Part shown: piece by piece, positions 2,876 through 50,288 of the stretch
Layout of the letters: each line of letters opens with the position of its first letter
Position numbering within the stretch: position 1 is the stretch's first letter
Assembly: GCA_038245295.1 (NCBI GenBank)
Contig: JBBRSP010000006.1
Location: forward strand, 174,021 to 238,020
From: Candidatus Binatia bacterium
GTDB lineage: Bacteria; Desulfobacterota; Binatia; HRBIN30
Direction of reading: 5' to 3'
DNA: 64,000 bases
Notes under the pieces: model-generated
Seen by the model: the letters and a program-made list of their open reading frames with translations, nothing else
What the model was told of the DNA's origin: nothing
Databases searched by the model: none
Translations under genes and position numbers: made by a program

Positions 2876-3166
2876 TCAGTGGTCGCGCTGCTCATGTCGC
2901 CGTTCGGCAATCCCCGCCGGCCGACGCACCGGTGGAATGCGGAGCGGCTGTTCATCCTCGATCTCCACATGCCCATGCCGCCGTATGGTCATCCCCGCAC
3001 CCAGGCATACCGCTACGATTCCCACGAGCAAGAGCCACGGCAGCACGACACTGATGACTAGAACGATTGCCTGGAAGGCGCAGCACATGAGCGGCTGCAC
3101 GATGAGCAGCGCCACCACAAGCTCGACCAGCGTGTCCATCGATGCCCGGCCGCGCTCATCGTTCAT
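2876..3166 (-). CDS. Small hydrophobic membrane protein (96 aa)
   Basis: Two predicted TM segments. Its start ATG overlaps the JAB-E1 stop (ATGA). Confidence 0.45.
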   Translation of the reverse strand: MNDERGRASMDTLVELVVALLIVQPLMCCAFQAIVLVISVVLPWLLLVGIVAVCLGAGMTIRRHGHVEIEDEQPLRIPPVRRPAGIAERRHEQRDH

Positions 3167-4605
3167 CCGGAGGCGCCTTCCGCGTGGCCGACATCATCCA
3201 GACCAGGGATGACCGGTGGTAACTCACTCCTGCTCATGCGGTTCGGGCGCCAGGTCGGAACAAGATCACCCAGACCCAGCCGTCCTTCTGCGCTGCAGTG
3301 CAAACACCCCTTTGTTTCCGGCACGGTGATTGAGAAGATCTCCCCTTCGAGTTCGCGATAGACGAGGTACGGCCGCGGGTTCCGGTAGGGGGCGACGAGG
3401 TTGTGCAGCTCTGCCACAGCAAGCGAGGCCACCACACCGTTTAGGTGGTACACCGCGGGCGCAGCTACTCCGGTCAAGTATCCGCGTTGCGTCAGAAGCG
3501 CCCGCTCCTCTGGTCGTGCCAGATCTTGTGCTGCACGCGTCGCGTCAAGCACACCTGCGCAGAGCAGGCACCACGCTCCCAGGGGCGGCACCACGACTTC
3601 GCCGCTGATATCGTCAAAGCGTCCGTCGTCGCCCACGCTGAGGTTGACCCCAGCGTGCAGAATCGGAATCAGATATTGCGCGGCCAAGGCGTTGAGCACG
3701 AGACGGGAAGCATCGTTGTCCGTGGCAGCGATCAAGACATCGCAACCACTGAGCGCCCTGAGCGAGCGCTCCGTGAACACGGTACAACGCAGCGCCTTGA
3801 TTTCCGCATCGTCGTCGATGCTGCGAATGTTTCGCGCCGCCACATCGACCTTGGCGATTTCTTCGGTCGCATCGGAGAGCGTGGTCGCGAGCAGTCGATT
3901 GAGGTTGCTGACTTCGACAATGTCCGGATCGACCAGCACCCAATCCCGCACCCCGAGTCGGGTGAGCTCCTCAACAATGACACTGCCAATGCCACCCACG
4001 CCGACAATTCCCACGCGCAGCGCTCGCATCCGCGCCTGAAACCCTCTCCCAAAAGCGCCGATCTGCCGATCGAACCGAGCGGCGTCGACCGCTGACAAGC
4101 CCGCATCCCCATCGAACATCAGCATCGCTCCATCGAAGGACGGCGACGGAATTCGAACCGGCCTCGCTTCGTCATCGCGCACCTCCCAAATGCGTGTGGC
4201 TGTGCTCGATGGATTGACGACGACCGAACCGTAAACCGTTTCAGGCAGGCGCTCCGCGAGGTAGGCAGCCATTACGAGTTCGTTTTGATCATCGATACAC
4301 GAGAAATCGACGTGCGGGCCGTCACCGGGGTGCGAGTGGAAGTCGACCTGCGACAAACCCTCTTGGGCGGCCAGTTGCAGGACGTGCTGCTGCACCTCGG
4401 GTCGCAGGGTCAGACCGCCCGCCGATTGATGACTGAATGCCTCAGGCGGCATGAGTACGAGGTGACGTCCCAGAAGCCTCAGTTGTGTGCCTGTGCGGTG
4501 CAGGCCGCAGAGTACGATAGCCATTTGCTCACGCTCTCGATCGTGGAGCAGGTGCGTGCGGAGTTCTCCTCCCATGGTTGGTGGAAGGACGATTCGATAG
4601 TTCAT
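3163..4605 (-). CDS. JAB/MPN(JAMM) deubiquitinase-like domain fused to E1-like ThiF/MoeB adenylyltransferase domain
   Basis: The N-terminus has a JAMM-like motif EG...FHSHPGDGPHVDFSCIDD. The central region has the ThiF Rossmann motif GIVGVGGIGS...VLVDPDIVEVSNLNRL. C-terminal CxxC pairs (CLLCAG, CLHCSAEG) are present. Start MNYRIV at 4605 is 11 nt after the E2 stop. Confidence 0.75.
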   Translation of the reverse strand: MNYRIVLPPTMGGELRTHLLHDREREQMAIVLCGLHRTGTQLRLLGRHLVLMPPEAFSHQSAGGLTLRPEVQQHVLQLAAQEGLSQVDFHSHPGDGPHVDFSCIDDQNELVMAAYLAERLPETVYGSVVVNPSSTATRIWEVRDDEARPVRIPSPSFDGAMLMFDGDAGLSAVDAARFDRQIGAFGRGFQARMRALRVGIVGVGGIGSVIVEELTRLGVRDWVLVDPDIVEVSNLNRLLATTLSDATEEIAKVDVAARNIRSIDDDAEIKALRCTVFTERSLRALSGCDVLIAATDNDASRLVLNALAAQYLIPILHAGVNLSVGDDGRFDDISGEVVVPPLGAWCLLCAGVLDATRAAQDLARPEERALLTQRGYLTGVAAPAVYHLNGVVASLAVAELHNLVAPYRNPRPYLVYRELEGEIFSITVPETKGCLHCSAEGRLGLGDLVPTWRPNRMSRSELPPVIPGLDDVGHAEGASG

Positions 4606-4616
4606 GACGGATGTCC

Positions 4617-5168
4617 TCAATTGTCGTTGGTCAACACGTCGCGCACGAGCGACAAGAAGGTCCACAGATTGTCGGAATCGCGGAAGTCGGCCGATGGCTG
4701 CCAACCGCCATCGTCAGGAGCCTTCGGCCAGACGCAATACCAGTGCCAACCTGCTGCCAGAAGATCGGGCGCACCATGAAATGCGGAGCTGGTGAGATGT
4801 GGATCACCCCCGCCGTCGGCCAGAGGAAATTTCCTGTCGAGATAGAAACCGAGTGGCGGTGAGATCGGGTAGGTCTGTGGGAACACGACTAAGAGCTGCG
4901 CCCAGCGGTGCTGCCAGCGTTCCGGGAGCGCGAACTGTTGGATGCGAAGCCAATCGCCGTTCGCTTCGTCGAAGTCGACGCCACCGCGATCGCTGAAACG
5001 CGGCGCGATCATCAGGACCTCGTTCTGAATGCGCGTTGTGCGATCGTCGAACCCCGAGGGGCCAACGGCAGCCCGGCGCGCTGGCGCTCTGTCGGGCGTC
5101 ACGTCGATCGCCGTATCATGGCCGTCTGGTATGAACAGTGCCTCAAGGACTCGGACGAATGTGCTCAT
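4617..5168 (-). CDS. E2/UBC-like ubiquitin-conjugating enzyme homolog
   Basis: UBC-like FPQTYPISPPLGFYLD motif (compare eukaryotic FPxxYPFxPPxxxF). A candidate catalytic Cys sits in WHWYCVWP. The gene lies between the Ubl and JAB-E1 genes, and the Ubl stop overlaps its ATG. Confidence 0.55.
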   Translation of the reverse strand: MSTFVRVLEALFIPDGHDTAIDVTPDRAPARRAAVGPSGFDDRTTRIQNEVLMIAPRFSDRGGVDFDEANGDWLRIQQFALPERWQHRWAQLLVVFPQTYPISPPLGFYLDRKFPLADGGGDPHLTSSAFHGAPDLLAAGWHWYCVWPKAPDDGGWQPSADFRDSDNLWTFLSLVRDVLTNDN

Positions 5169-11070: not shown

Positions 11071-11100
11071 AAGTCACCCAAAGTCACCTAACGTCACCTG
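11071..11100. repeat. Three GTCACC motifs phased at 10 bp. Right arm of the inverted iteron pair. Overlaps the last codons of the helicase-like gene.
   Basis: AAGTCACCCAAAGTCACCTAACGTCACCTG. A GGTGGCCACC palindrome at about 11043 lies between the arms. Confidence 0.7.
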
Positions 11101-12438
11101 GTCGTCAGTTGGTGCTCGCTGCTCCGCGCCTTCGGCCAGGCCGTACTTCTCGCGCAGGCGCTGGAGCTTTGGGAAGTCTTCGAGGGCGATGACGTAGCTT
11201 CCTTGAACTCGTTGCGGCTTGAGACCAAGGCGCTTTCGTAGAATGCCGCCGATCCACTTGTTCGTCACCTTGCGCTCGTATTCGTCACCAAAGCGTTCCG
11301 TAAACTCGGTCGTGATCTCTTTGACAGAAAGACGCGACTCGGCGCTGAGAAGCAACAGTTCATTGATGACGTCGACCACTTGCGCCTCGGTGCTCATCCC
11401 TCGCTCGGAAACGGTATCGTGCTGATAGCGGTGCGCGAGCTCCGTGATTTCCAGACGAACGGCCGCATCGTCGATGATGCTGAGCAAAGGCACGAAGACC
11501 TGATTGAGACGCGGTTCGAGGCTCCGGTCGACGAACGCTTCGTTCGGACGGCATCGGGGTAAAGTCCGGAAACGGAACAGCAGGAGCTTGTTCCGCAGCG
11601 CACGTGCTTCATTCTCAAATGCTTCGGGAAGGCTGATCGGAATGTCCTCGCGCAACGGACGTTGCCCCATGTCTTCGGTCAGGCAGCGACTCTCAAGAGC
11701 GTTGTCTTCAAAGAAGCCGCGGGTAGCGATAATCTTCGGCCCAAACACCGCATAGGCGCGCGGGTTGAATTCGCCCTTGCCGTTCGCCTCGCTCCTGAGC
11801 ACGGGGAAGCCCCGGCCGTTCCCGTTGTTGAGGATCTTGACGACTTCAGCCTTCGCGTCGGTCTGGCGCCAATCGCTCTCGTCGACGACGAGAGTGCCGC
11901 GAAAGGTGTCGATCAGCCGAAAGATTGGCGAGACGGTTGAGGCGCCACTGGCGAAGATTGGTTTGTAGCAGAGCGATCCGACGGTCAGGAGAAACCGGCT
12001 TTTGCCGCTGCCGGCGTCACCGCGGACGCGAAGGTATGGCAGCTCGTTGAACCGATCGTAGACCCACGTGAAGAGGATGTAGTAGCTCGCGATCTGTTCA
12101 TAGATCGGGCTCAGATCAACGTAGCGATGCAGAAACGCCTGGAGTTCGTGGATCAAGTCAGACTCTGCACCGTACTCCTCGGGCGCAGACGGAAACATCA
12201 CGACGCGATGTTTCACGAGGTTGTTGCTGGCGGCGTAGGGCACGAGAGTCTCGGAGGCACTGAGTTCAACGCGGGGCTGTTCGTGCCACGTGCCGTCGTT
12301 CCACACGGCGAAGGACGTCGAGACCTTCTCAGGGTCGTAGACCATTTCCACGACTCGCCCATCGGCAAGCACCGCAGATACGGCCGGGACGCCGCGCGAG
12401 GTGGTCGGCTCTTGTTTGTCAAGCTGCTTCTCGTCCAT
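11074..12438 (-). CDS. P-loop NTPase, putative replicative helicase-like protein of the element
   Basis: Walker A RGDAGSGKSRFL and Walker B-like TLVVDESDW. Lies immediately downstream of the TOPRIM/zf-CHC2 primase gene and overlaps it. Confidence 0.5.
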   Translation of the reverse strand: MDEKQLDKQEPTTSRGVPAVSAVLADGRVVEMVYDPEKVSTSFAVWNDGTWHEQPRVELSASETLVPYAASNNLVKHRVVMFPSAPEEYGAESDLIHELQAFLHRYVDLSPIYEQIASYYILFTWVYDRFNELPYLRVRGDAGSGKSRFLLTVGSLCYKPIFASGASTVSPIFRLIDTFRGTLVVDESDWRQTDAKAEVVKILNNGNGRGFPVLRSEANGKGEFNPRAYAVFGPKIIATRGFFEDNALESRCLTEDMGQRPLREDIPISLPEAFENEARALRNKLLLFRFRTLPRCRPNEAFVDRSLEPRLNQVFVPLLSIIDDAAVRLEITELAHRYQHDTVSERGMSTEAQVVDVINELLLLSAESRLSVKEITTEFTERFGDEYERKVTNKWIGGILRKRLGLKPQRVQGSYVIALEDFPKLQRLREKYGLAEGAEQRAPTDDQVTLGDFG

Positions 12439-13498
12439 CGGTTTGAGAGTGAAGGTTTTCCAAAAACTCAAGCGCTTTCAGGAACGGTAACCGCTCGACG
12501 GCGATCACGAACGTGATCACGTCACCGTACCGGCCGCAGCCGTAGCAGCGGAACCGACCGGCCTCGGGGTACACCATGAGCGAGGGGTAGTGGTCTTCGT
12601 GGAAGGGGCACCGGCCACGCAGACTCGCGCCGGACGGGCGCAGTTGGATGTAGCGCTCGATCAGATCGCCAATGGGAACCGCCGCCTTTACGTCAGCAAC
12701 GCGACGACTCACTTCGTTGAAGGGACGCGAAAGACCAGACGACGGTATCACCGGTAGGGTCACGGGAAGCACGGGTACCGGCGTCGCTCGCTCAAGGAGC
12801 CCGAGAAAGTCTTCGCGCGTGTGTTGAAGTCGCACGAAGAAGTCGGTGATGTCACCGGCCGGACCCACCTCGTCGGGTAACTGGACGATTTTTGCATGTG
12901 GCAGGAATTGGCCGACGCGCAGCGCTCCAGCCCGGCCGGCGCCGTCGAGATCAAAGCAGAGGTAGATCTCCGGAATTGGTGCGAGATCATCAACCCACTC
13001 GGTACGGAGGGTACCCGCGCCACCGGTCGACGTCACGGCCGCGAAGCCGTGCGACTCCAAGACCAGTCGATCGAACTCGCCTTCGCAAATGATGAGGCGG
13101 CACGGTTTCGCGAGCACACGCTCCCAACCGTAGAGTTCTACTGACCCGCCGCGCGACGTCAGCATTTTTGGATCGTCGTTGCTGCCTTCCGGATCCCTCG
13201 CCAGTTTGAAGCAAACCACTTCGTCCAAGCGGTTGCGGATCGGAATCGTAATGCGCCGACCGTTCCAACCGAGCTGATGGAGTGTGATCACCTCGTCCGC
13301 GATACCGCGCGCCACAAGATACGTGCGAATGCGGTCGGGCAGCGCTTCGTGGTACCGAATGGCTTGGGCGCGAAGGTCGTCATGCATGATTCGCACGGTA
13401 CGACAGTCTACTACGTGGCCGAAGGCGGCGCGGTATGGCGACAACGGCAAGTCGGCCAGTCTTCGGTGCATTGAGGACGACGCGTAGGATGGACGCAT
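12419..13498 (-). CDS. Primase-like protein with a TOPRIM domain followed by a C-terminal CHC2 zinc finger
   Basis: TOPRIM motifs LIICEGEFD and CFDLDGAGR are mid-protein. The zf-CHC2 motif CPFHEDHYPSLMVYPEAGRFRCYGCGRYGDVITF is at the C-terminus. Confidence 0.6.
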   Translation of the reverse strand: MRPSYASSSMHRRLADLPLSPYRAAFGHVVDCRTVRIMHDDLRAQAIRYHEALPDRIRTYLVARGIADEVITLHQLGWNGRRITIPIRNRLDEVVCFKLARDPEGSNDDPKMLTSRGGSVELYGWERVLAKPCRLIICEGEFDRLVLESHGFAAVTSTGGAGTLRTEWVDDLAPIPEIYLCFDLDGAGRAGALRVGQFLPHAKIVQLPDEVGPAGDITDFFVRLQHTREDFLGLLERATPVPVLPVTLPVIPSSGLSRPFNEVSRRVADVKAAVPIGDLIERYIQLRPSGASLRGRCPFHEDHYPSLMVYPEAGRFRCYGCGRYGDVITFVIAVERLPFLKALEFLENLHSQTDGREAA

Positions 13499-13668: not shown

Positions 13669-13896
13669 ATGGCGGTTGAACGACGCGAACTGACTTCGCT
13701 CCGTCATCTCCTCACCCTAGGAGAGGTGGCGGAGTTTCTGCGCATCTCAAAAACCAGCGTCTATCGGCTCGTCGATCGGCGCGAACTTTCCTGCTGCCGT
13801 GTCGGTCGCAGCCTCAGGTTCACGATCCACGATGTAGATACCTACTTGCGTAGTCAACGCATCGGACCAACTGCCGCTGATCAAGACAACCTATGA
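13669..13896 (+). CDS. xis: Excisionase-family HTH DNA-binding protein
   Basis: LLTLGEVAEFLRISKTSVYRLVDRRELSCCRVGRSLRF matches the excisionase/AlpA-type HTH. Overlaps the integrase start by 4 nt. Confidence 0.6.
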   Translation: MAVERRELTSLRHLLTLGEVAEFLRISKTSVYRLVDRRELSCCRVGRSLRFTIHDVDTYLRSQRIGPTAADQDNL

Positions 13897-15080
13897 GCGC
13901 ACGGAAAATAGGACACTCCTGGTGGGTGGATTTCCGACACGCTCACCAGAGAATTAGAAAACGAAGTCCAGACAACAGTCGCGCTGGCGCTGCGGTATTC
14001 GAGGCGACGCTGCGCGGTCGCTTGGCTCGCGGAGAACCGCTGTTTCCAGCGGTGCACCGACCCCAGCCAAAGCCGCGCTTCGAAGTGTTCGCCTGGCACT
14101 GGTACGACGTCTATGTGAAGACCAACAACAAGCCGTCCGAGCAGCGGACGAAGCGAATAGTCCTCCGAAGGCACCTCGTACCGTGTTTTGGGAAGTCCGC
14201 TCTCGACGCGATCACGGCGCTCCACATCGAGCAATTCAAGGCGTCGCAACTTAAGTCGGGCCTTGCCCCAAAGACTGTCAACAACTCCCTAGCGATCCTT
14301 GGAAAATGCCTTCGAACCGCAGAAGAATGGGGCGAGGTTGTTCGCATGCCCAAGATCAAGCCGTTGCAGGTGCCGCCGCAGAAGTTCGACTTCCTGTCGG
14401 TCGAAGAAGCGAATCGGCTCATCCGCGCAGGGAACGATCCTCAGTGGCGAGCGATGGTCGTAGTCGCACTTCGAACCGGTCTCCGGCTCGGCGAGCTACT
14501 CGCGCTCGATTGGACAGATATCGATCTGGAAGCCTCGAGACTCACGGTACGGCGGTCGGTCTTCGGGAACCAGTTCGTTTCGCCGAAGAGCAACCGCATC
14601 CGGCACATTCCGCTCACAGATCAGACGCTACGGGTGCTCTGCGCGATCAAACAACCGGCCGGTCTTGTTTTCAAGCGCCGCGGTCCCGGACCTCTGAATC
14701 GTAAGACCCCAGCAAGAGTGATTTCGCTCCTTTGCACCGCAGCGGGCATTCGCCAAATCGGATGGCACGTCCTCCGACATACATTCGCCAGTCACCTGGC
14801 GATGGGCGGCGTTAGCATGAAGGCAATTCAGGAACTGCTTGGCCATTCAGACATTCGAACGACGATGCGCTACGCCCATCTGACTCCATCGATACTGCAG
14901 GACGCAGTGCGCGTTCTCGAGTCCGAGCCGACGCCAGCGGACACGCTTGTTGGGCAACCGGCGGGCAACGCTTTTGTAGCCGCCGTGGAGGACAAACAAA
15001 AACACCCCAGTATACGGGGCGTTTCTGCGGAATTTGTTGGCTCGGGAGGTGGGATTCGAAACGCCGGGCACGACGTTTGA
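13893..15080 (+). CDS. int: Tyrosine site-specific integrase
   Basis: C-terminal catalytic motifs HVLRHTFASHLAMGGVSMKAIQELLGHSDIRTTMRYAHL (R...HxxR...Y). Core-binding N-terminal domain present. Confidence 0.85.
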   Translation: MSARKIGHSWWVDFRHAHQRIRKRSPDNSRAGAAVFEATLRGRLARGEPLFPAVHRPQPKPRFEVFAWHWYDVYVKTNNKPSEQRTKRIVLRRHLVPCFGKSALDAITALHIEQFKASQLKSGLAPKTVNNSLAILGKCLRTAEEWGEVVRMPKIKPLQVPPQKFDFLSVEEANRLIRAGNDPQWRAMVVVALRTGLRLGELLALDWTDIDLEASRLTVRRSVFGNQFVSPKSNRIRHIPLTDQTLRVLCAIKQPAGLVFKRRGPGPLNRKTPARVISLLCTAAGIRQIGWHVLRHTFASHLAMGGVSMKAIQELLGHSDIRTTMRYAHLTPSILQDAVRVLESEPTPADTLVGQPAGNAFVAAVEDKQKHPSIRGVSAEFVGSGGGIRNAGHDV

Positions 15081-15272
15081 GAAGTACTGCAAATCAACAA
15101 CTATCGCGGTACGACATAGGTGATCATCATTTGCAGTGATCTGCACATGGAACACCCTGTCGCCACCATTTGTCACCTCGTGGGCAACAGATGGGCAACA
15201 CATCTGGGAGGGTGACGAATGCGGAATGCAAAGGGCGGAGCTACGGCTCCGTTCTTTGCATTCCGCGACGGA

Positions 15273-18260
15273 TTACGAGTGCTCGCCCGCTGAGGCGTCA
15301 CCAATTGCTTGCCCCCAACGAAGACGGTATCGGCGTTCGCGTTCCAGAAATGCACGCTCACCACCTTCGAGGATATCGCAAACAAGCCGGCGAATTGTCG
15401 GGTGCTCCAGCGATCCGCTTCGATACGACATCGTTGGCAGGCCACCTGTTGGACTGGACGTGACCGCCGCAACGATCACTTGGTCGACGTCGGCGTTGAC
15501 GACAAGGTTCGCGTTGTGGGTGACGATGATCACCTGTCGCCGCTTCCGAGCTTGGCGAAAGTGGGGCACCAACTCCCGGAACACGGAGTTCGGATCAAGG
15601 TTTTCTTCGGGTTGGTCGATGATCAATGGGCGTCGATCATGATGGTCGACCGCCAAATACAGAAGCAGGAGAACGATTCCGCGCGTTCCGGGCGATAGTT
15701 GCTCAATCGGCACACCGTCGTATTCAATACTGTAGCGAACTCGCAGATGATGGGTTCCGTAGAGCCATGCCCCGACTTGCTGGTTCCATCGAGGGCGGTT
15801 CTCGGTTGCAATAGTGCCGGGTCTGCCGGCAACGATGTCCTTACCGAAGTGCTCCCGAAAACCTTCTATCGCGCGCGCAACCTCTTCAGACGTGCCGCCC
15901 CGCCACGGTTTGAGCAGGTACATTTGTGCATGATTGGCGAGGGAACCTTGTCCTCGGAACTCTCCGGCATTTCGGAGGTCGAGCAACTGTTCTCCCTCCG
16001 ATGCCCACGAGACGATATCAACTGAGCGCTGGACGACGAACTTGAGCTTGCTTAGTGCACCCGTGGATTGATGAAAGGAGGCCGCCAGCGGGAGATAGAG
16101 GGTACGCAGCGCCTCCTCTTCTTCGACAAATGTGTCGACGACGCTGGTATACGTCTCCTTCCGTAGATCCAGTAGGGTTCGACGCCGCATGTCCGCCCCT
16201 TCGGCATGTTTAATCTCCTCGTGCAGCCGACCAAGCTTGAGATCGTTCTCGTTCACAGCTCGTTGGAGGATGTCGAAGGTTCTCTGCTTCCCAGCGTCGG
16301 CGCCTACGTCTTTCTTGAGCTGATCTCGATGTCGGCGGAGGACGATCACCGGCCAGTCTACCGTCGGTGGCAGTGTCTCGTTGACGACGAGACCAGGCTT
16401 GCCATTGATCAGGGAATCAATGGTTTGATCAAGTTCTTGTAGTTTCTTCGTAAGCAAAGCCGCCACGTCACCCTTGAACACCATCTGAAACAAGTCCCAA
16501 TCGGCCAACTCAAGACCGGCCGCGTTGAACCGACGTCGCATCTCCGACACTCGCGACGGCTCGTTCGCAAGAATGCGTTGCGTTTCTGCACGAAGGTCGT
16601 CCGCTGACTTCCTTCGTAGCCGCAAGTTCTCCACCTGCGCTTCCGCGGCTCGACATACTGTCTCGACGCGGGACAGCTCTCGGCCTCGCTCCTGCATTCC
16701 CTTTGGGAGGATCTGGCCTAGTTGTTTGCGGTCACTCTCCAGCTGCTTCTCCAAAACGACACATGCCTTCTTCTGGTCCGGTAACCGGTCCTTCAGCGAC
16801 TCCTCACGGGCAACCTCATCGGAGATCCTGTCAATTGCTTTCTGGAGTTCACCGCGTCGCTCCCTGATAGGATTGACCGCGGTGTCGACGAGTTGATCAA
16901 ACGACTCCGCTTCTAGACGGTCCGTAGGATCAGTCTCCAAGAAGACGAGTCGTTCCATTTCCTTCCGAAGCTCACTCGCCAGACCGGCCGAGGAGCACAG
17001 TTCCTCTACAAAGTGTTGCGACAAATACCGCGCGTTTTCGTCTTGGAGATCGTCGGTCTGCCAGGGAGGACCCAACGCTTTGGCCGCCGATGTCTCTCCG
17101 GAATACCACGTCAGTTGTACCTGTTCCTCGAGGAGTTGCTCTGCTGCGCGGTACAAGAACGACGACGCACCGGGTGAGTTCGTCATGGCACCGGCGCCGA
17201 CGGCGATGATATCCGCGAGGGCTGTCTTCCCCGATCCACGAGGGCCGATGATCGCGATCATTCCTTGGTTGAGATCAAGTGACTTGTTTTCGATCCATGG
17301 AGCACCGAAAATTTCCACGCGTGAAATGCATGACGAAGACGGCGGTGGAGTCGGCGGCTCTGCCCCTATCCAGACACGTTCCTCGGGCTCAAGAACCGCT
17401 TGACGCAACGCCTCGAAGGACAGGTCTCCCTTGATCCAGCAAAACCGATCTTGAGCTGGAGCAGCAACCAGGTCGAGTCGATGGGCGTCCGACCCATGGA
17501 GACACGGCTTCAGGCTTCCGAAGGTTTCCTCGATCCAGGCAGGAGGACTTCCCTCCTTCTGGCCGAGCCAAAACGTTCGCTCGCTCGGAGTCCCGGCAAA
17601 GATGACGTGCGCGGTACGTAGGATCTCCTGGCGAAACGAGGCGAACGAATCGTCATGTTGAATGCCAGCCGTTCCATCAGTGGAACTCGCGCAGGCAGCG
17701 ATCAAGCAGTTTTGCTGTAGCCAGTCGTCGCTTCGGAAGACTTGTTTTAGCTGCGCCAGCGAGACCTTGAATTGATTCGCGCCTTCACTCACGGCCGTCG
17801 CCCCGCTCACTCCTGGAATGTGTTTCTTGCCAAGTCTTGCCAGATCATCTCGAACGCAGGCGAAGGTTTCGCCGTCAACTTCAATGGTGAATCGACGAAG
17901 AGTGCGTTCGATACGCTCTTCGTGGTCGGAATCGAATGGTGAGAAGAGGAGATGGAGGTTGATGCCTGGTCCCTTCTCAGTTTTCACATCTAAGCGAACT
18001 TCGACGTTCGGGAAGAGAAGCTGAATGCCTGGCAATCGGCCTTCCGCTTTGCGCCGTCGGACTTCACGGTAGGTCTGGATTCCGAAGTAGTCCGTCACTC
18101 CGAGAGCGCTGATCAGCGGCGATGCATTCTCTAGTGCTTGTAGGTATCCTTCCCAATCGCCCCCGAACTCGTCGTTCAAAAGAGTGCCTGGCGCATGTAT
18201 ATGCGGATCCCAGCGGCGCCATTCGGAGCCGCGCGAGGTTTCAAGGTCGGGATGGTTCAT
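15273..18260 (-). CDS. PHP-domain (putative phosphoesterase/nuclease) fused to an SMC/Rad50/SbcC-like ABC ATPase with a coiled-coil insert
   Basis: N-terminus WDPHIHAPGT is PHP-like. Walker A IIGPRGSGKTALADII is at about residue 330. A ~350-aa coiled-coil region follows. ABC signature QLSPGTRG and Walker B/D-loop LIIDQPEENLD are near the C-terminus. Confidence 0.6.
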   Translation of the reverse strand: MNHPDLETSRGSEWRRWDPHIHAPGTLLNDEFGGDWEGYLQALENASPLISALGVTDYFGIQTYREVRRRKAEGRLPGIQLLFPNVEVRLDVKTEKGPGINLHLLFSPFDSDHEERIERTLRRFTIEVDGETFACVRDDLARLGKKHIPGVSGATAVSEGANQFKVSLAQLKQVFRSDDWLQQNCLIAACASSTDGTAGIQHDDSFASFRQEILRTAHVIFAGTPSERTFWLGQKEGSPPAWIEETFGSLKPCLHGSDAHRLDLVAAPAQDRFCWIKGDLSFEALRQAVLEPEERVWIGAEPPTPPPSSSCISRVEIFGAPWIENKSLDLNQGMIAIIGPRGSGKTALADIIAVGAGAMTNSPGASSFLYRAAEQLLEEQVQLTWYSGETSAAKALGPPWQTDDLQDENARYLSQHFVEELCSSAGLASELRKEMERLVFLETDPTDRLEAESFDQLVDTAVNPIRERRGELQKAIDRISDEVAREESLKDRLPDQKKACVVLEKQLESDRKQLGQILPKGMQERGRELSRVETVCRAAEAQVENLRLRRKSADDLRAETQRILANEPSRVSEMRRRFNAAGLELADWDLFQMVFKGDVAALLTKKLQELDQTIDSLINGKPGLVVNETLPPTVDWPVIVLRRHRDQLKKDVGADAGKQRTFDILQRAVNENDLKLGRLHEEIKHAEGADMRRRTLLDLRKETYTSVVDTFVEEEEALRTLYLPLAASFHQSTGALSKLKFVVQRSVDIVSWASEGEQLLDLRNAGEFRGQGSLANHAQMYLLKPWRGGTSEEVARAIEGFREHFGKDIVAGRPGTIATENRPRWNQQVGAWLYGTHHLRVRYSIEYDGVPIEQLSPGTRGIVLLLLYLAVDHHDRRPLIIDQPEENLDPNSVFRELVPHFRQARKRRQVIIVTHNANLVVNADVDQVIVAAVTSSPTGGLPTMSYRSGSLEHPTIRRLVCDILEGGERAFLERERRYRLRWGQAIGDASAGEHS

Positions 18261-18345: not shown

Positions 18346-19386
18346 TTGAGCGCACTTCGTAAAGCGTTCTGGGGCAATCTCTCGAATCGGCAGCGGCCAG
18401 GGACTCTTGATGGTGATCGCATAGTCGGCAGTCCCGCATTGGCAACTGCCGCAAAGTCTCACCACCTGCCAAAAGATCAGCGCATAAAGCGATCTGTCGA
18501 GATCCAACGGTCCTTCTCACTGATCTCGCCTCGAGCGCCGAACCAGTCGAGTACCGTACTGATGAGATCCGCAGCGACAGTGGGCATCCATTGCACGACG
18601 ACGTCGAGCGTTTGCCGTAAGCGGATTCCGGATCAGCCCCTGCGTGAAAGGATCAGCGATCCTCGCTTCGCAGATTTTAACGAAGGCGCTAGGTGGGACT
18701 CGGTAGGAGGTGGCGTTTGCGTGGCAATGACTATTGAAGATGTCGAGCAACGTGCCGGTCGCGTTCTCAACGCGCAACTCCGAAACCCGAATCGCGATGT
18801 TCAGGACGCGATGTTTCGCGTGCTATGCGCCAGAGTCGTAAAATTTGGCAACGCTGCCAGCATGCTGCGATCAGCGGGATATGCTGAGCCAGCAATGGTA
18901 ATGTTGCGATGCATTTACGAGACCTATCTGTGGACTCGTTGGATTCTGATAGATCCGAAAAACGCGCAGCAATATTGGGATATCGGCAAGCGAGAAGCGG
19001 CCCGATTAACTGGAAAAATGGTTGGACAATACGAGATCAAGATCCGTGACTTTCCAAAGGACTCGCACGTACGCCAGGCCTATAGTGACCGCCAGGCGAA
19101 GAGTATCGACCTTCCTGATCCATCGCGCCTAGCTGCAACTGTGGGGGTGCAGCGCCTTCACGACGCCGTCTATCCGCTTCTCTCGTGGATGACACATGGG
19201 AACATTCTTTCGCTCGGCGAAGGCATGCTTGCGTCGACGAACGGCCAGTCTGTTCCGACGGGGGCAAGCGAGCTGAACGTCATGTTGTTCGACGTCATGG
19301 CGGCAAGAGTCGGTGAGGCATGCGTCGAAATCCTCGAGACCTGGTCCGAACGCCACGAGGTTGCACCGCCGTTCATTTGGAAATGA
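18346..19386 (+). CDS. Hypothetical protein. The true start is possibly the internal M near 18727.
   Basis: ORF only. No recognisable motif. Divergent from the PHP-ATPase gene. Confidence 0.3.
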   Translation: MSALRKAFWGNLSNRQRPGTLDGDRIVGSPALATAAKSHHLPKDQRIKRSVEIQRSFSLISPRAPNQSSTVLMRSAATVGIHCTTTSSVCRKRIPDQPLRERISDPRFADFNEGARWDSVGGGVCVAMTIEDVEQRAGRVLNAQLRNPNRDVQDAMFRVLCARVVKFGNAASMLRSAGYAEPAMVMLRCIYETYLWTRWILIDPKNAQQYWDIGKREAARLTGKMVGQYEIKIRDFPKDSHVRQAYSDRQAKSIDLPDPSRLAATVGVQRLHDAVYPLLSWMTHGNILSLGEGMLASTNGQSVPTGASELNVMLFDVMAARVGEACVEILETWSERHEVAPPFIWK

Positions 19387-19724: not shown

Positions 19725-22610
19725 TCACCCTCGAACTCCGGTGGGGTTACCGCAACTTAGAGATCGGTCGACAGCCCGATCCGCGCGATCTGGAGGGCGG
19801 TTTCCTTGTCGCGCCAATTCGCAGCCGTTCAGCGCGTTGTTTACCGCCGCAATGATCTCGTTGATCGTGATGTCGCCCGACCCATCAATGTCGCCGGCAG
19901 CGCAGGCGGAGACATTCGCGTTTCCGAGAGCAATGTTGACCATCGTGATGATGTCGTTCACCGTGACGTCGCCCTCCTGGTCGCAGTTGCCCGCGCACGA
20001 GATTGGCGTGCGGGTTGGACTCGGAGAACCGGTCGCGGTGGGCGTAGGGATTCTTGACGGTGACGCTGTCGCGGTGGCAGTCGGCGTTCCGGTCGCGGAC
20101 GCACTGGGCGTAGGCGTGGCGGTATAGGTCGGGGTGATCGTCGCCGTTGCCGTTGGTATCGCCGTCGGTGTCTGCGTACCGGTCGCCGTGGGCGAGGTCG
20201 TTAGCGTTGCGGTCCCAGTCACCGTTGGTGTTGGTGTCGCGGTGAACGTCGCTGAGGGCGTGGCGGTAAGCGTCTGAGTTGGTGTCGCCGTAGCAGTAGC
20301 TGTTGGCGTCTGGCTCGGCGTCGCGGTACGCGTCCCCGTAGAGCTCGCCGTTACCGATGGCGTCGCGGTGAACGTTTGCGTCAATGTTGCGCTGAGTGTC
20401 GGCGTCGAACTCGGCGTAGCCGTTACCGTCGGTGTGTTGGATCTCGTTCCTGTTGGCGTTGGCGTGCCGGTCGGTGTGGACGTAGCTGTAACGGTGGCGG
20501 TCGATGTGTTCGATGGCGTAGCCGTGAATGTGCGTGTCGGCGTGGGAGTCTGGGTTGCTGTCCGCGTGGCGGTTGGCGTTGCGACCACCCCGAACGAGCT
20601 GACAGCGCTCTGCGTCTTGCGTCCCGCAACGTCGACCGCCTTCACAAACCACGTATGGGGACCAATGGTCAGCGGCACCAAGGGAACAAAGGCCGTCTGC
20701 AACACCGCGACGATGCACGGCGCACATTGGCCACCGGCGCCGCTGTCGATCCAGACTTCGTAGTTGGCAAGGCCGCTGCCGACATCGCTCGACGCCAACC
20801 ACGAGAAAGTGGGGAGAGACCCGGTGATGGTTGCCTGATCGGGCGGACTGACGAGCATGAAGGACGTTGGCGGTTGGGTGTCGACGTAGAACGTGAACGT
20901 TTCGAGCGAACGCGCTGTGTTGCCCACTTTGTCGAACGCCTCAATATACCACTGGTACGCGCCATCGGTGAGAGCCGATGGCGGCGTGGTGCAGGTACTC
21001 GATACAGTAATGTTGTCCCGGATGAGCGTGCCACCAAAGTAGAGGCGGTAGCCGACCACTCCAGAGACAGCATCCGTGGCGCCCGTCCAGCAAATCTGTG
21101 GCGTCAGACTCGACACAATCGCGCCATCGGCGGTACCAGGACTGAGACCGTTGAGGCGCAGGCCGGTGGGGGCGGTCGTATCGACTAGAAACGAAAACAG
21201 GTTGGTGCTGCTCGAATTGCCAGCTTGGTCGGTTGCGAGCACGGACCAATGGTGCAGTCCGTCGGCAAGCTTCATCGGAAACGTAAAGCTCGACGCCGCG
21301 AGCCCGGGATCAAAGACAGGGAAGGAATCGAGGTACACTCCTTGGCGGGCAAGGCCGCTCTCGGTGTCAGACGCGATCTGCCACTGGACGGTTGGCATTT
21401 GGTTTGTGATGTAAGACCCATGTGCGGGCGCCGGACTAAACGCCGGGAAGACCGGTGCGGTCGAATCGATGCGCACGGTACGGGCCGGCGCTGTGGCGCT
21501 GTTGCCAACTTTATCCACCGCAGAGGCAGACCAGGTATGCGTGCCGTTCGTCAGGGCCGAGAAAACGCCGAAAGTGAACGAGGAGGCATTCGTCTCCGCT
21601 GCCGGTACGGTTGTTCGAACCTGTCCATCGATTGTCAGGTCGTAGTGATCCAATCCGGACGGTGAGGGGCTGGCTCCGTCGCTCGTCGGTGCCCACTGGA
21701 AGCTAAACGCAGAGTTCCCGGATTTCCATGCCAGGTCGTCGGGAGCCGTCAGTGCAAAAGGCGCGGGCGGCGTGGCGTCAACGTTCACGGTGAACGTATT
21801 GGGAGACTGCGTACACGTCCCGAGTGAATCACAGGCTTGGATCGTCCAGGCATGCACCCCTTCGCTCAATTGTTCGGAGACGGTGAGCGTATAGCTTTGA
21901 ATCGTTGGCGGGATGTTGTTCTTCTGCACCGCTCCATCTACTCGAAGGACATACTTGGCCACCGAGAAATCTGAAGGAGGCTCCGCCCAGATGAACGTGC
22001 AGGACCGCCTGCAGAATCCGTTCTGGACGGGTTGGATCAAATCGAGGGGCGGCGACGTGTTCAAGAAGCTGGTGAAGTACGTGTTCATGTAGGACCCGCC
22101 CGAGCCATTTTCGACCGCCACCGCGATCAGATTCGTTTCACCCGGAATGAGATCCGCACTGATGTCGAGATTGATCCGAGAACCGGAACAACCTCCGGTG
22201 TTGCCAACGCATCCAAAACCGAAGCAATTGCCGCCCCAGTGCCCTTTGTAGGCGTTGTTCACGTAAACATCGATCCCGTCGTCGCTGTCGAAAGAGATTG
22301 TCGCATTGGCCAGGCCGCCGGGGACAAATGTCCCGCGGTAGAAGCGCGTCCGGCTTCCCGGAATGTCGTTGTGGGCAGGAAGCGAGATTGCGCTCCACGA
22401 CGAGTCGTCGAAGGCGGGATGGTACCAAGCGTTGCCGGCGCCATCGGTTGGTCCACTGCAGCTGGTGCTGATGGGTGAAGCACGCCAAATAATCGTTGGC
22501 GCGGCCATCGTCGGATTGCAGAGAGGTCCGACACACAAGCCAGCGACTGCGGTCGCGACAACCGACCAGAAGAACAACCGATGAAGAAGAACCCGGGCAA
22601 CTCTCGTCAT
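19725..22610 (-). CDS. Large secreted multi-domain protein: signal peptide, Ig/FN3-like repeats, PT-rich linker, C-terminal tandem dockerin-like repeats
   Basis: Long [15 protein letters not shown]... linker. C-terminus has [19 protein letters not shown] and [25 protein letters not shown] (dockerin type I-like EF-hand pair). Confidence 0.5.
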
Positions 22611-23210: not shown

Positions 23211-23407
23211 AATGCTCTCCTAGATTGAGCGGCACCGCTCCAGGCGGCCAAACTCTTTCCAATGGGATGCCAAATAGCACTTATGCAGTGTGTTGGCAAT
23301 CCATTTTGCATCGCAATGCAGTGCATATTGGCGCTTTGGCAATGCGACGCACTGTGGCCGACAGACCCCGATTCATTCCATCTTCAGGTTCCCCGGAGGT
23401 AGCCAGG

Positions 23408-23728
23408 ATGGACAACCGAGTGGCACTTGGCCTGCGAATCAAGGAGTTGCGAAAAGCGCGTTCGCTCTCTCAGGAAGCCTTGGCGGAGAAGATGGAGGTA
23501 CATCCCAAGTACCTCGGATCGGTCGAACGCGGCGAGCAGAATCCCACCATGGAGTTTCTCGAGAAAACAGCGCTTGCGCTTAGAGTCGACCTATCGGCGC
23601 TGTTCAATTGTCCCTGGCAGAGGATGAATGAGAGTGACCTCAAGAAGAAGCTCCACGCCCTTGTCGAAAAGTCGACCCTGGAGAGCCTTCGCGAAGTCTT
23701 AGCTATCCTGAAGTCGCGAGAGTTATAG
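23408..23728 (+). CDS. XRE-family HTH regulator
   Basis: Start MDNRVALG at 23408 with a GGAGGT RBS. LRKARSLSQEALAEKMEVHPKYLGSVERGEQNPTMEFLEKTALAL. Confidence 0.55.
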   Translation: MDNRVALGLRIKELRKARSLSQEALAEKMEVHPKYLGSVERGEQNPTMEFLEKTALALRVDLSALFNCPWQRMNESDLKKKLHALVEKSTLESLREVLAILKSREL

Positions 23729-24989: not shown

Positions 24990-25318
24990 GCGATGAGAAA
25001 CGCAAGAAATTGGCCGAACGCCTGCGAATGGCGCGCGAGGCGGCGAAACTCTCACAGGATGATGTTGCCCGAGAGCTCCTACTTCCTCGCCCGGCTATCT
25101 CACAGATCGAGAATGGGCATCGACGCGTGGAGGCGTTGGAACTGGCGCGCCTCGCGAAGCTTTATGGACGTCCCCTCGGCTTTTTTGCGGACGAAGAACC
25201 AATGGGTGCCGATGCGCTGTACCGCACTACGGCGGCCCTTTCGGAAAAGGATCGCGCCGAGGTGCTTCGATTCGCCGAGTTCCTTCGTCAAAAGGCCGAT
25301 GACACGGGGGAGCCGTGA
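24986..25318 (+). CDS. XRE-family HTH regulator (ImmR-like partner of the ImmA peptidase)
   Basis: LRMAREAAKLSQDDVARELLLPRPAISQIENGHRRVEALELARLAKLY. Immediately upstream of, and overlapping, the ImmA-like gene. Confidence 0.6.
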   Translation: MSDEKRKKLAERLRMAREAAKLSQDDVARELLLPRPAISQIENGHRRVEALELARLAKLYGRPLGFFADEEPMGADALYRTTAALSEKDRAEVLRFAEFLRQKADDTGEP

Positions 25319-26325
25319 TGGTCGAAGTTGTGCGAGAGGCGATTCTGCGTGGCATAGGCGGTGCTGCGGAGGCTCATGATGCTTTCAGGTTTCGGCAGCG
25401 CCATGAGGATGGCCTGCGTGCAATCGATGTCTTCGGCGTCATCGCGGAGCTAAAGCTCCCACTTGCGTTTCAGGCTCTCGACGAATTGTTGGGCGCGTGT
25501 ATCAGGGTGAGCAGCAGTGAAGTTGGAATCCTTGTCACTTCGCAACGTGATCTACACATGCAGCGTTTCACTGCGGCTCATGAGCTTGGGCACTTCGTCT
25601 TGGAGCATGAAGGCAGCCTAGACCGCGAGATCCGGTTGCCCGGCGATACGAAGGGGCGTGATCCGCGCGAGATCGAAGCCGACGCATTCGCCGCGGAATT
25701 CTTGATGCCCAAATGGCTCGTCAAAGCTGCGGCCCAGCGACGGCATTGGTGGGGTGACGACCTGTTGCGGATCCCGGAAGTCGTCTACCAACTCTCACTC
25801 CGACTTGCCGTCAGCTATGAGGCTACATGTTGGGGATTGGCTGCCCACGACTTTGTCCGACGTGATGTAGCAAGAGCCCTCACTGTCAAAAAACTGAAGG
25901 ACGTCAAGAAGAAGGTCCTTAGAGGTGTTCCGCTAGGCGACCCATGGGCCGACGTTTGGCAACTCGGTTCGGGAGACGATGGTGCTCAGCTCGACGCTGG
26001 CCCAAACGATCTCTTCGTCTTCGAACTCGCGGAAAGGGCCGCATCGGGATTCCGATGGGATGTGCAATCCGCAATCGATACGGGCTTCGCCCTTCTCGCC
26101 GACACGAGCGAGTTCGACGAGCGGGTGGTTGGTGGACAAAGCGAGCGGCGTTTGGTCCTCAGCGCGCCTCCGCCAGGCACTTATGAGCTTCACTTGCCGT
26201 TGCGGCGCTCCTTTGAGGCAACACCAGCCAACGGAACAGCGTTCAGTATCTCGATTTGTACGATCGGAACTCGACGCGACGAGTATCCGGCGGAGTTTTC
26301 TACGGCGGTAAGCACAGTGCACTAA
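25315..26325 (+). CDS. ImmA/IrrE-family Zn-metallopeptidase domain protein with an extra C-terminal domain
   Basis: HEXXH motif AAHELGHFVLEH and downstream EIEADAFAAEFLMP. The stop TAA overlaps the next ATG (TAATG). Confidence 0.6.
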   Translation: MMVEVVREAILRGIGGAAEAHDAFRFRQRHEDGLRAIDVFGVIAELKLPLAFQALDELLGACIRVSSSEVGILVTSQRDLHMQRFTAAHELGHFVLEHEGSLDREIRLPGDTKGRDPREIEADAFAAEFLMPKWLVKAAAQRRHWWGDDLLRIPEVVYQLSLRLAVSYEATCWGLAAHDFVRRDVARALTVKKLKDVKKKVLRGVPLGDPWADVWQLGSGDDGAQLDAGPNDLFVFELAERAASGFRWDVQSAIDTGFALLADTSEFDERVVGGQSERRLVLSAPPPGTYELHLPLRRSFEATPANGTAFSISICTIGTRRDEYPAEFSTAVSTVH

Positions 26326-27745: not shown

Positions 27746-28772
27746 ATACCAAGCGGCAGCCAAGAGCACCGATCAGTTCCCGAAAACGAAAGCGATCAAG
27801 GGGGCGAACAGCTCGCTTCAAAAGGCCGAACTGGTGCCACTCCTCGGCTTGACTGGCGAGATCGGTGCGTTGCTTTCCGAGTACAAGAAACTGCTTCGAG
27901 ATGGTCCCATTCATCTGCGGTTTTCTGATCGTCTCAAAGAGGAACTCGGCGACATCCTTTGGTATGTGGCGACTGTAGCGACAAAGTTCGATCTGCCCCT
28001 GGAGGAGATCGCTCGTCTGAACCTAAAGAAAGTGGCCGACCGATGGTCAAAGCCTCGACGCCGTGAGCCGTTGGACACATCCTACCCGCCCAACGAACGG
28101 CTGCCGCGAAGGTTTACGTACCGGTTCACCTACGAACATCGGAAGGACCTAACGCGGGGCGTTGCTGTCGTCGATCACGACGGCACGCGCATCGGCGACC
28201 TGCTTACGGACAACGCTCACGAGAACGATGGCTATCGATTTCACGACGTCATGCATTTCGCGTTCGTGGCGTTGCTTGGTTGGTCGCCTGTCGTACGCAA
28301 GCTTTTGCAGAGAAAACGCAAGAGCATCCGGAGCTCGGACGAAGTTGAGGACGGGGGGCGGGCAGGAGTCGTAGACGAAGCGATTGTGGCGATGGTGTTC
28401 GACTATATTCAGCATGACCTCGCTTCAACAACCGGAATGACCCGTATCGACTCCGATACTCTCCGCAGCATTCGCGCCCTTACCCGAGGGTTTGAAGTCA
28501 ACGTGCGAACCGAAGCGGAGTGGGAAGAGGCGATCCTGAAGGGCATCGAGGTATGGCGGCAGATCGAGGCTCACGATGGCGGAACAGTGGTCGGAGACTT
28601 TACGCGTCGCTCCTTCACGTTCAGTCCGAAGGGTGGACGAAGTCGAAGGAGATCTGCTCACGTCGCGAACCCCGTGCCGCGCCGTCGTAGGGCAAAGGAG
28701 CCCCGTTCAACTTCCACTTCGGTGGGTAGAACTGGGGTAGCGGATCGAGACTCGGCGAGAAGTTCTGTTTGA
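27732..28772 (+). CDS. MazG-like all-alpha NTP pyrophosphohydrolase domain protein with an unknown C-terminal domain
   Basis: Start MRLREYQ. Motifs LGLTGEIGALLSEYKK and EELGDILWYVA (EExGE / EELGDxLW MazG/HisE signatures). Confidence 0.55.
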   Translation: MRLREYQAAAKSTDQFPKTKAIKGANSSLQKAELVPLLGLTGEIGALLSEYKKLLRDGPIHLRFSDRLKEELGDILWYVATVATKFDLPLEEIARLNLKKVADRWSKPRRREPLDTSYPPNERLPRRFTYRFTYEHRKDLTRGVAVVDHDGTRIGDLLTDNAHENDGYRFHDVMHFAFVALLGWSPVVRKLLQRKRKSIRSSDEVEDGGRAGVVDEAIVAMVFDYIQHDLASTTGMTRIDSDTLRSIRALTRGFEVNVRTEAEWEEAILKGIEVWRQIEAHDGGTVVGDFTRRSFTFSPKGGRSRRRSAHVANPVPRRRRAKEPRSTSTSVGRTGVADRDSARSSV

Positions 28773-29898
28773 TGCGTGTTCGGCCCGAAATGCCGACGCA
28801 TTCGGGATGCGCCACACGGGCATATTTGCTCACCTCGCAAAAGAGATTCTGGTGATCAATTAGTTGTAAGGGGCGAATACCCCCCAGCTTGTCAAACTGG
28901 AGGCCCAGCCGATCAAATTCGACTTCGGCGATCGAAGCGACGTAGCCGATTATTTCGCTCTCGGCCATTCCGGAAGTGTTGCTGAAGCACTTCACAATTC
29001 CGTCGAGCGCACCAGGTCCTGGAACTACGAAATCCATTTCGGAAAAATCGGTTAGTTCGCTGTAGTTGACGTCAATCGCATACTGGAACGCGAGAAATGC
29101 ACCCAGCGATGGGTAGCTGCGGAGGATTGCAAAAACCTCCTCAAGAGACTTAGCCCTACCGACTCGACTTGGAGTACCGTCGCGCATCATTCGTTCAAGA
29201 AGCTGAAGATGATTGCGATGTTTCCGAGGACTGCCGAACGGAGGCGACGGCATGATGTACGCAGCAGAGTAAAGACGCTGACCCCGCGCATAGGCGGCGT
29301 CTAGGATCCGACCATATCTCTCCTCGTCGAAGCCGTACCACGCCGGAAGTTCTCCGAGTTGGTTGATCAGGAGCTCCCAAGTCCCGATGCGGTTAAAGAA
29401 TTTGAAAAGAAGAATTCGAAAGAAGACGTCATCCGCATGCTGAGACCCTTCGTAGATCACATGCCGAATCAGATACTGACTTACCCGATCCGATGCGCGG
29501 TAGGCATTTGTGAACCGGTGCGAAGCAATGATCGGATCGCTGCTCCACGGCAGCGACGCACCCTCAACGCGACGCATGAAGACTGCTTGTCGCTCGGCCG
29601 CAAAGCGCCAATAGGTATCAAAGACAGGCGTAGCTTCGACCGCCCGCCTGTAGGTTGCCTGAAGCAATCGTCCCAACCGAACACCCTCCTCCGTCCCCGA
29701 CGAGCGAAGCAAGGATATCCGCAGATGGCTTGGAGGTCCACCGCAAGACGTGGTGTTTTTGAGCTTCGCAGCAAAAGGTGCGAAGCGATCTGACGCGACG
29801 AAAGAACGAACCCGATCGGAGGGTCCGTTTTGTTTCGCGTCATTGCGCCTGGAATTTGACGAGGTCCGTTGCGCTTGTGCGTCGTTGCCGAGACACAT
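28621..29898 (-). CDS. Hypothetical protein (425 aa), convergent, low-GC
   Basis: Large ORF with about 50% GC over 28800-29500. No confident motif. Confidence 0.3.
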   Translation of the reverse strand: MCLGNDAQAQRTSSNSRRNDAKQNGPSDRVRSFVASDRFAPFAAKLKNTTSCGGPPSHLRISLLRSSGTEEGVRLGRLLQATYRRAVEATPVFDTYWRFAAERQAVFMRRVEGASLPWSSDPIIASHRFTNAYRASDRVSQYLIRHVIYEGSQHADDVFFRILLFKFFNRIGTWELLINQLGELPAWYGFDEERYGRILDAAYARGQRLYSAAYIMPSPPFGSPRKHRNHLQLLERMMRDGTPSRVGRAKSLEEVFAILRSYPSLGAFLAFQYAIDVNYSELTDFSEMDFVVPGPGALDGIVKCFSNTSGMAESEIIGYVASIAEVEFDRLGLQFDKLGGIRPLQLIDHQNLFCEVSKYARVAHPECVGISGRTRIKQNFSPSLDPLPQFYPPKWKLNGAPLPYDGAARGSRREQISFDFVHPSD

Positions 29899-50254: not shown

Positions 50255-50288
50255 TAGGAAGCGCTGGCCGCTCACGGGTTCGATTCCC
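50255..50288 (+). other. tRNA/tmRNA 3'-end-like fragment (T-arm plus acceptor 3' strand). Probable att core.
   Basis: CACGGGTTCGATTCCCCCCGCCTCCAC. A T-loop TTCGATT is flanked by a G/C stem. It resembles a tmRNA/tRNA 3' end, but no complete cloverleaf exists upstream. Its complement encodes the recombinase C-terminus. Confidence 0.4.

Follow-up and report, generated by a model that had tools for sequence, protein, structure and literature searches.

Among the described systems related to the gene studied here, the closest is Ppl, which needs just one gene and combines an ATPase with a PHP (polymerase and histidinol phosphatase) domain; it restricts T7 and is countered by gp130 of phage Bas63 (PMC11482910). 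Ppl has been described in a 2026 review as a 3'-5' exonuclease on single-stranded DNA (ssDNA), whose activation depends both on lifting of the inhibition by nucleoside triphosphates (NTPs) on its PHP and NTPase domains and on 3'-OH ends produced by a phage homing endonuclease (PMC12904381). Another paper lists Xu et al., Mol Cell 2026, as the primary Ppl report and cites a single reference for Ppl, dsr1, tmn, qatABCD, and further systems (PMC13223576). Here, we analyzed a 64,000-nucleotide stretch of contig JBBRSP010000006.1 from Candidatus Binatia bacterium (positions 174,021 to 238,020; hereafter the window), in which a gene on the reverse strand (15273..18260) encodes a PHP domain fused to an ABC (ATP-binding cassette)/SMC-like ATPase and belongs to the TrlF family. 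The reference that Ppl shares with dsr1, tmn, and qatABCD is said to be Gao et al. 2020 in Science.

The open reading frame (ORF) of this gene is uninterrupted and starts with ATG (995 codons plus stop codon). Its translation matched the NCBIfam model of TrlF family AAA-like ATPases (NF045780) with 616.6 bits (cutoff 350, E-value = 1.3e-184), residues 10-979 of the protein being aligned to positions 1-944 of the 944-position model, i.e., over the complete model. The Spaf_1101 model gave 126 bits, which is under its cutoff of 475. The protein has the organization that characterizes TrlF, in that a PHP-type domain precedes an ABC ATPase interrupted by a long helical stretch and the chain falls within ~950-1010 amino acids; it is a member of the curated family, and nothing in its architecture sets it apart. 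The AlphaFold2 model of the protein had a mean pLDDT (predicted local distance difference test score) of 88.5 and a pTM (predicted template modeling score) of 0.78. Considering that 119 full-length homologues, whose mean column identity is 59%, keep every motif residue invariant, the motif set described below is not a product of chance.

The PHP domain was assigned to residues ~10-300 (17361..18233, reverse strand) on the basis of structure and motif conservation. It contains the motif WDPHIHAP at residues 17-24 and a second PHP motif, HGSDAH, at residues 255-260. The putative metal ligands are H20, H22, D57, E87, H103, D258, and H260, a set that is kept in 75-79 of 80 diverse TrlF family members. 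The modeled domain is a distorted TIM-like barrel with His/Asp/Glu ligands, an N-terminal HxH, and a C-terminal DxH, as is typical of the PHP fold. The Pfam PHP family (PF02811) did not match at E-value ≤ 1 with the whole protein or at E-value ≤ 10 with the isolated domain, nor did a profile built from the N-terminal alignment retrieve any PDB sequence; therefore, the assignment relies on structure and on the conservation of ligands and motifs. Weak matches to PHP_C (PF13263) were obtained for 23 of 41 family members (best E-value = 0.0022). According to the model, the N-terminal ~300 residues are a predicted PHP-fold metal-dependent phosphoesterase whose ligand set is intact.

The ABC ATPase head is split into two lobes. 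Its N-terminal lobe (residues ~311-430; 16971..17330, reverse strand) was detected by N-terminal matches of Pfam AAA_23, AAA_15, and SMC_N and by alignment with the N-terminus of the Smc head. This lobe contains the Walker A motif GPRGSGKT (339-346) and the Q-loop LSQHF (413-417), and G339, G342, G344, K345, and Q415 were found in 80 of 80 sequences. The C-terminal lobe (residues ~836-980; 15321..15755, reverse strand), detected by Pfam AAA_21 and SMC_N, by BLASTP similarity to Ppl and by its invariant residues, carries the ABC signature LSPGTRG (855-861), the Walker B/D-loop LIIDQPEENLD (879-889, in which Walker B D882 is followed by Q883 and D889 is the D-loop residue), and the H-loop VTHNAN (913-918, with H915). 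The matches to AAA_21 (47.2 bits) and SMC_N (45 bits) were above the Pfam cutoffs. The helical insertion of coiled-coil type between the lobes (residues ~431-835; 15756..16970, reverse strand) was delimited by AlphaFold2 secondary structure and whole-chain Foldseek matches. Residues ~430-835 are nearly all helical in the model, with long helices at 454-517, 523-566, 656-687, and 689-721 and an apex around residues 567-637. Whole-chain Foldseek matches included JetC, SMC, Rad50, MukB, and RecN, and LmuB and AriA were also among the structural matches.

A preceding reading of the DNA, made from its letters and translated ORFs (the sequence-only reading), had already proposed the fusion of a PHP domain and an ABC ATPase in one polypeptide, which is borne out by structure, motifs, and the full-length NF045780 match. 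The WDPHIHAP, LSPGTRG, and Walker B/D-loop motifs that it named near the two termini are all present, and its coiled coil of ~350 amino acids was roughly right; it had correctly recognized a Walker A but placed it at about residue 330 instead of 339-346, and it named no strand for the gene. From the hidden Markov model scan that it suggested, AAA_23, AAA_15, AAA_21, and SMC_N returned matches and PHP PF02811 did not. Its concern that the N-terminal domain might prove not to be a PHP fold is answered by the fold seen on modeling.

The Walker B Asp is followed by Gln (DQPE) in 79 of 79 TrlF sequences and also in Ppl. When the window protein was compared with Bacillus subtilis Smc heads by phmmer, Q883 was aligned with Glu in 3zgx and with Gln in 5xg3, the latter of which we take to be an engineered E-to-Q mutant. 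It is known that E-to-Q replacement at Walker B in SMC proteins, Rad50, and ABC transporters preserves ATP binding and head engagement and strongly slows hydrolysis. Since an invariant Gln occupies the position of the catalytic Glu of SMC proteins, the alignment suggests that the ATPase head is mainly a slowly hydrolyzing sensor or switch of nucleotide occupancy and not a motor, which agrees with the NTP inhibition reported for Ppl.

For comparison with Ppl we used WP_000233113.1, the product of the annotated ppl gene of Escherichia coli plasmid pCY708. The two proteins are homologous from end to end: hhalign of the TrlF alignment against Ppl gave a probability of 99.8% and an E-value of 5.8e-29 over 796 columns (TrlF 19-988, Ppl 2-885). 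Both have the same domain order, PHP and then an ABC head with helical insertion, and both are encoded by stand-alone genes. They share the PHP ligands, Walker A, Q-loop, SPG signature, DQPE Walker B, and H-loop, identical residues being H20, H22, D57, E87, H103, D258, H260, K345, Q415, S856, D882, Q883, E885, D889, and H915. On the other hand, Ppl is shorter (891 vs. 995 amino acids), and H113, C253, and H255, which vary little or not at all in the TrlF alignments, are replaced by T, W, and R in Ppl. BLASTP aligned just two short segments, the C-terminal lobe (34% identity over 173 amino acids, E-value = 9e-20) and the region from GSDAH to Walker A (35% over 104 amino acids, E-value = 1e-9). 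Because Ppl itself passes NF045780 over its full length (476.5 bits, cutoff 350), it can be placed within the TrlF family; judging from these model scores, Ppl is a subclade of this family as delimited by NCBIfam, and the window protein belongs to the same family without being a strict Ppl.

The TrlF family is large and widespread. A word-indexed search of 5.8 billion proteins detected at least 4,875 relatives at E-value ≤ 1e-5, the best of which, other than the protein itself, is 59% identical. When 1.84 billion representatives of 50%-identity clusters were searched exhaustively, 1,901 matched at E-value ≤ 1e-30 and 5,568 at E-value ≤ 1e-10; the best 150 of the 1,901 were all ~950-1010 amino acids long and matched query residues ~9-981. 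More than 584 TrlF loci were found in species-representative genomes, and the family occurs in KSB1, Acidobacteriota, Planctomycetota, Verrucomicrobiota, Alpha-, Beta-, and Gammaproteobacteria, Actinomycetota, Bacteroidota, Melainabacteria, and Leptospirales. By tblastn, 1,066 plasmid records were matched; the match was close to full length in 231, and 800 were on plasmids predicted to be conjugative. Among these carriers, conjugative plasmids from clinical Enterobacteriaceae are common. A megablast search of plasmids revealed no closely related DNA. Phage genomes are nearly free of TrlF (seven weak partial matches). Plasmid homologues with 41-49% identity carry the RefSeq product name "TrlF family AAA-like ATPase", and some records label TrlF relatives "DNA repair ATPase". 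The proposal of the sequence-only reading that a PHP effector in this position would be a distinct variant therefore fails, since exactly this fusion is defined by NF045780, named by RefSeq on plasmids, and also present in the validated Ppl. A literature search under the name TrlF found no study of the family and returned only an unrelated tropolone-biosynthesis gene, trlF, and the spectroscopy acronym TRLFS. Our analysis ties a very large, widely annotated, and apparently unstudied family to one characterized member, Ppl.

The surroundings of TrlF genes were compared across 81 loci, in which ORFs were predicted and neighbors up to three genes away on either side were clustered. No conserved partner gene was found, as no neighbor family occurred in more than 4 of the 81 loci, and the orientation and spacing of the immediate neighbors vary. 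Pfam families among 150 immediate neighbors included ResIII and DEAD helicases (five each), phage integrases (four), AAA_21 (four), AAA_15 (three), and AbiC, PIN, and Xre antitoxin (two each), with single instances of AbiEii, HipA, KAP NTPase, TraI, MobA, a restriction endonuclease, and a DDE transposase, among others. Such surroundings are typical of a gene that stands alone as cargo of defence or mobile-element type. A housekeeping repair factor kept in syntenic core positions, which the sequence-only reading had named as the outcome that would speak against it, is contradicted in these loci by the lack of conserved neighbors together with the defence/mobile-type surroundings; the patchy spread and the frequent plasmid carriage point in the same direction.

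A separate observation concerns a TrlF gene on the E. coli IncI plasmid pEC3-3 (NZ_CP060981.1), which is of clinical origin and conjugative. The segment 3244-10960 contains, in order, an ATP-binding protein and UvrD-helicase pair (Gabija-like), TrlF, and an Abi-family gene, and an ISEcp1 transposase lies at the margin of the examined stretch.

Based on homology with Ppl and on genomic context, we consider it probable that the TrlF-family protein acts on its own as a Ppl-like defence nuclease, travels as cargo of a mobile element, and is gated by NTPs and triggered by DNA 3' ends. By homology, it would probably dimerize through its ABC heads and helical arms, and at normal cellular NTP levels bound nucleotide would hold the PHP nuclease off. 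Infection, which would deplete NTPs and generate free 3'-OH DNA ends, may serve as the trigger, whereupon the PHP domain would degrade DNA in the 3'→5' direction and halt phage replication. The defence-type role put forward in the sequence-only reading is thus a reasonable one, supported by the end-to-end homology to Ppl and by neighbors of defence and mobile type. The window gene, a divergent member of a known family, may be annotated as a putative defence nuclease of the TrlF family that resembles Ppl and lies on a mobile element.

Several points weigh against this assignment. Anti-phage activity and mechanism have been established for Ppl alone, and the searchable literature yielded no experimental test of a TrlF-clade member other than Ppl proper. 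The Ppl-specific model NF042955 gave the window protein 117.6 bits against a cutoff of 1000 (1330.5 bits for genuine Ppl). A check with TrlF and PADLOC models, which the sequence-only reading had recommended, was likewise divided: the TrlF model NF045780 matched above its cutoff, whereas the PADLOC Ppl model (PDLC02208) gave a partial match of 104.3 bits. With the identity to Ppl low and patchy and the Ppl-specific models failing, triggers and substrates may differ between the two proteins. The structural neighbors of the PHP domain include both the endonuclease EndoQ and the 5'-3' exoribonuclease RNase AM, so the fold settles neither the polarity nor the choice between DNA and RNA as substrate. 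In the head, E885 or E886 could replace the catalytic base, so hydrolysis need not be slow. It is therefore conceivable, if doubtful, that the TrlF clade outside Ppl differs functionally, with another trigger or with plasmids or RNA as target, and that its Walker B, with Gln for Glu, makes the head a pure occupancy sensor; the window member would then represent an uncharacterized type of defence and not simply an orthologue of Ppl.

Instead of a Ppl-like phage defence nuclease, TrlF might be a factor in competition between elements, which senses incoming or small foreign DNA in the manner of Wadjet or Lamassu and destroys it with its PHP domain, benefiting the carrier element more than it protects against phages. 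The best whole-chain structural matches are indeed JetC of Wadjet (E-value = 2.5e-8), three quarters or so of the plasmid records (800 of 1,066) are conjugative, the window neighbors are of conjugation type (Replic_Relax, TraG/TrwB-like, primase), and TrlF is almost missing from phage genomes. OLD, GajA, AriA of PARIS, LmuB, and JetC resemble the window protein in being defence-associated ABC/SMC-type ATPases that are coupled to a nuclease, and partial PADLOC matches to AriA, LmuB, GajA, and MADS3 were observed over the ATPase lobes. These sequence matches are low scoring and cover parts of the ATPase domain (the mad3 match is longer but weak): GajA models match the C-lobe alone at E-value 4e-6 or weaker, and LmuB the first ~45 residues of the head alone with 31.7 bits. 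Moreover, the nuclease of OLD, Gabija, PARIS, Lamassu, and Wadjet is of the TOPRIM or another type and is often carried by a separate partner, whereas the nuclease of the window protein is a fused PHP domain and no Toprim family was among its Pfam matches. Wadjet and Lamassu require partners (kleisin-like, KITE-like, or a separate nuclease), but TrlF has no conserved neighbor, as no neighbor family of any kind recurred in more than 4 of the 81 loci. In addition, Ppl, the sole characterized relative, acts against phages (PMC11482910). Taken together, an anti-plasmid role is unlikely. The choice between phage and plasmid concerns the family as a whole and not this locus, within which the gene matters little; since conjugative plasmids of E. 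coli and Klebsiella often carry TrlF, whether the family restricts phages or plasmids would matter for phage therapy and for the dissemination of plasmids.

Another explanation is that the protein is an enzyme of DNA repair or end processing, a one-chain functional analogue of SbcCD/Mre11-Rad50 that acts on the host chromosome or on replication or transfer intermediates of the element. As in SbcCD, long helices divide the ABC head and a metal-dependent nuclease accompanies it; Rad50 and RecN heads are structurally similar, the PHP domains of Pol III alpha, PolX, and EndoQ are nucleases of proofreading or repair, and the label "DNA repair ATPase" is found on some relatives. However, the nuclease is PHP instead of calcineurin-like and is fused instead of forming a separate subunit; no CxxC motif, and hence no zinc hook, was found in the whole protein, whose helical insertion comprises ~400 amino acids, and Gln takes the place of the catalytic Glu in Walker B. 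Sequence similarity to Rad50 is marginal (E-value = 0.0033). A Metallophos partner of Mre11/SbcD type was not a conserved neighbor in the 81 loci and was not found among the 25 listed of 93 neighbor families. The patchy spread across phyla, the variable context with neighbors of defence and mobile type, and the anti-phage activity of the homologue Ppl also argue against this role, which we regard as very unlikely, and the description of the protein as an SbcCD analogue in the sequence-only reading holds as an analogy in architecture and goes no further. That the PHP domain acts on RNA, as RNase AM does, and that the activated protein ends infection by degrading transcripts or stable RNAs is extremely improbable, since Ppl, as described, degrades ssDNA in the 3'-5' direction and senses 3'-OH ends of DNA (PMC12904381) and the matching SMC/Rad50-type heads belong to DNA-binding machines.

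Within the window, the Ppl-like TrlF gene lies close to a tyrosine recombinase/integrase gene (13893..15080, forward strand; Pfam Phage_integrase, E-value = 5.7e-31), which is convergent with it and ends 193 bp away. The sequence-only reading had placed the gene at an integrase junction. The integrase is indeed adjacent, but no tRNA gene was detected in the window, repeat searches of positions 1-40000 and of the whole window revealed no att-like direct repeats beside the integrase and TrlF, and mobile-element genes are found on both sides; the integrase is context and not a functional partner. A strong stem-loop at 15221..15266 (reverse strand; stems of 13 and 6 bp, RNAfold -35 kcal/mol), which lies 9 nucleotides past the TrlF stop codon between the convergent genes, is a possible transcript end; it has no T-run, and the terminator scan made no call there. 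No sigma-70-like promoter was detected by a scan upstream of the TrlF gene.

To the left of TrlF are genes for the tyrosine integrase, a primase-like protein with Toprim and zinc-ribbon domains, a DUF932 protein, a helix-turn-helix (HTH) protein, a RuvC-like protein, a ThiF-JAB fusion, a TraG/TrwB-like protein, and Replic_Relax. To the right, the first genes encode a DUF5677 protein, a 961-amino acid Big_13 protein, a capH/capP-like pair of HTH protein and M78 peptidase, and a kinase of 5-hydroxymethyldeoxyuridine (5-hmdU) DNA, followed further on by a ResIII helicase with a DUF559-type nuclease domain, a PD-(D/E)XK nuclease, a TrwB/HerA-like ATPase, a SIR2-TPR protein, and a large serine recombinase (50272-52395). 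TrlF is located inside a mobile-element-like region of ~50 kb or more. G+C content climbs from ~0.58 to 0.63-0.70 just past the serine recombinase, near 53 kb, and this recombinase and the G+C jump are likely to mark the right end of the element. As a control for core versus accessory genes, the best relative of a flanking oxidoreductase is 69% identical, compared with 59% for TrlF, in a lineage that is poorly sampled; the named relatives of this oxidoreductase (~55% identity) are Steroidobacteraceae, Woeseiaceae, and Halioglobus, which by themselves would point to a host that is probably gammaproteobacterium-like.

The DUF5677 gene (18346-19386, forward strand) is divergent from TrlF, and its start differs between the ORF list (346 amino acids) and the public gene call (start 18721, 221 amino acids). 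It was considered as a TrlF partner and rejected, as it is not conserved beside TrlF and matched no PADLOC or NCBIfam model.

Several other genes of the region deserve mention. The 5-hmdU DNA kinase helical domain (28621-29898, reverse strand; Pfam HMUDK_hel, E-value = 5.9e-108) was found on this conjugative-element-like island. Such kinases belong to thymidine hypermodification pathways known from phages. Beside this gene are a 779-amino acid ORF of no assigned family (30706-33045) and the ResIII helicase with a DUF559/MTES_1575 nuclease domain (33042-35204), and the three may form a module of DNA modification and restriction. The HTH gene at 23225-23728 (forward strand) matched PADLOC capH (E-value = 7.6e-8) and the M78 (IrrE-like) peptidase at 25315-26325 (forward strand) matched capP (E-value = 1.6e-19), which form the regulator pair of CBASS-type (cyclic oligonucleotide-based antiphage signaling) systems. 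The peptidase also has a chagasin-like inhibitor domain, and a 4'-phosphopantetheinyl transferase gene and two small ORFs lie between the two genes.

In the left part of the window, the primase-like protein (12419-13498, reverse strand) has its Toprim domain at residues 135-197 and a C-terminal DnaG-type CHC2 zinc ribbon at residues 266-348, the reverse of the canonical DnaG order. An inverted repeat (10949-10974/11073-11098), whose 26-nucleotide arms of GGTGAC(T/C)T-type iterons are 92% complementary, is located upstream of, and reaches into the start of, a 465-amino acid ORF (11074-12471, reverse strand), and may be an origin or an operator. The ThiF (E1-like) and JAB deubiquitinase-like fusion (3163-4704, reverse strand), which weakly matched the anti-phage 6A-MBL cap2_3 model, adjoins the Replic_Relax (29-985) and TraG/TrwB-like (1260-2867) genes.

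Near the opposite end, a SIR2_2 and TPR protein (48066-50129, forward strand), which had no PADLOC match, adjoins the large serine recombinase (reverse strand) and is a possible NAD-depleting defence effector. Two further proteins are probably exposed on the surface or secreted: a 1,665-amino acid Kelch-repeat protein (39167-44164, forward strand) and the 961-amino acid protein with Big_13 Ig-like repeats (19725-22610, reverse strand), whose gene contains a degenerate six-copy DNA repeat at 20141-20375.

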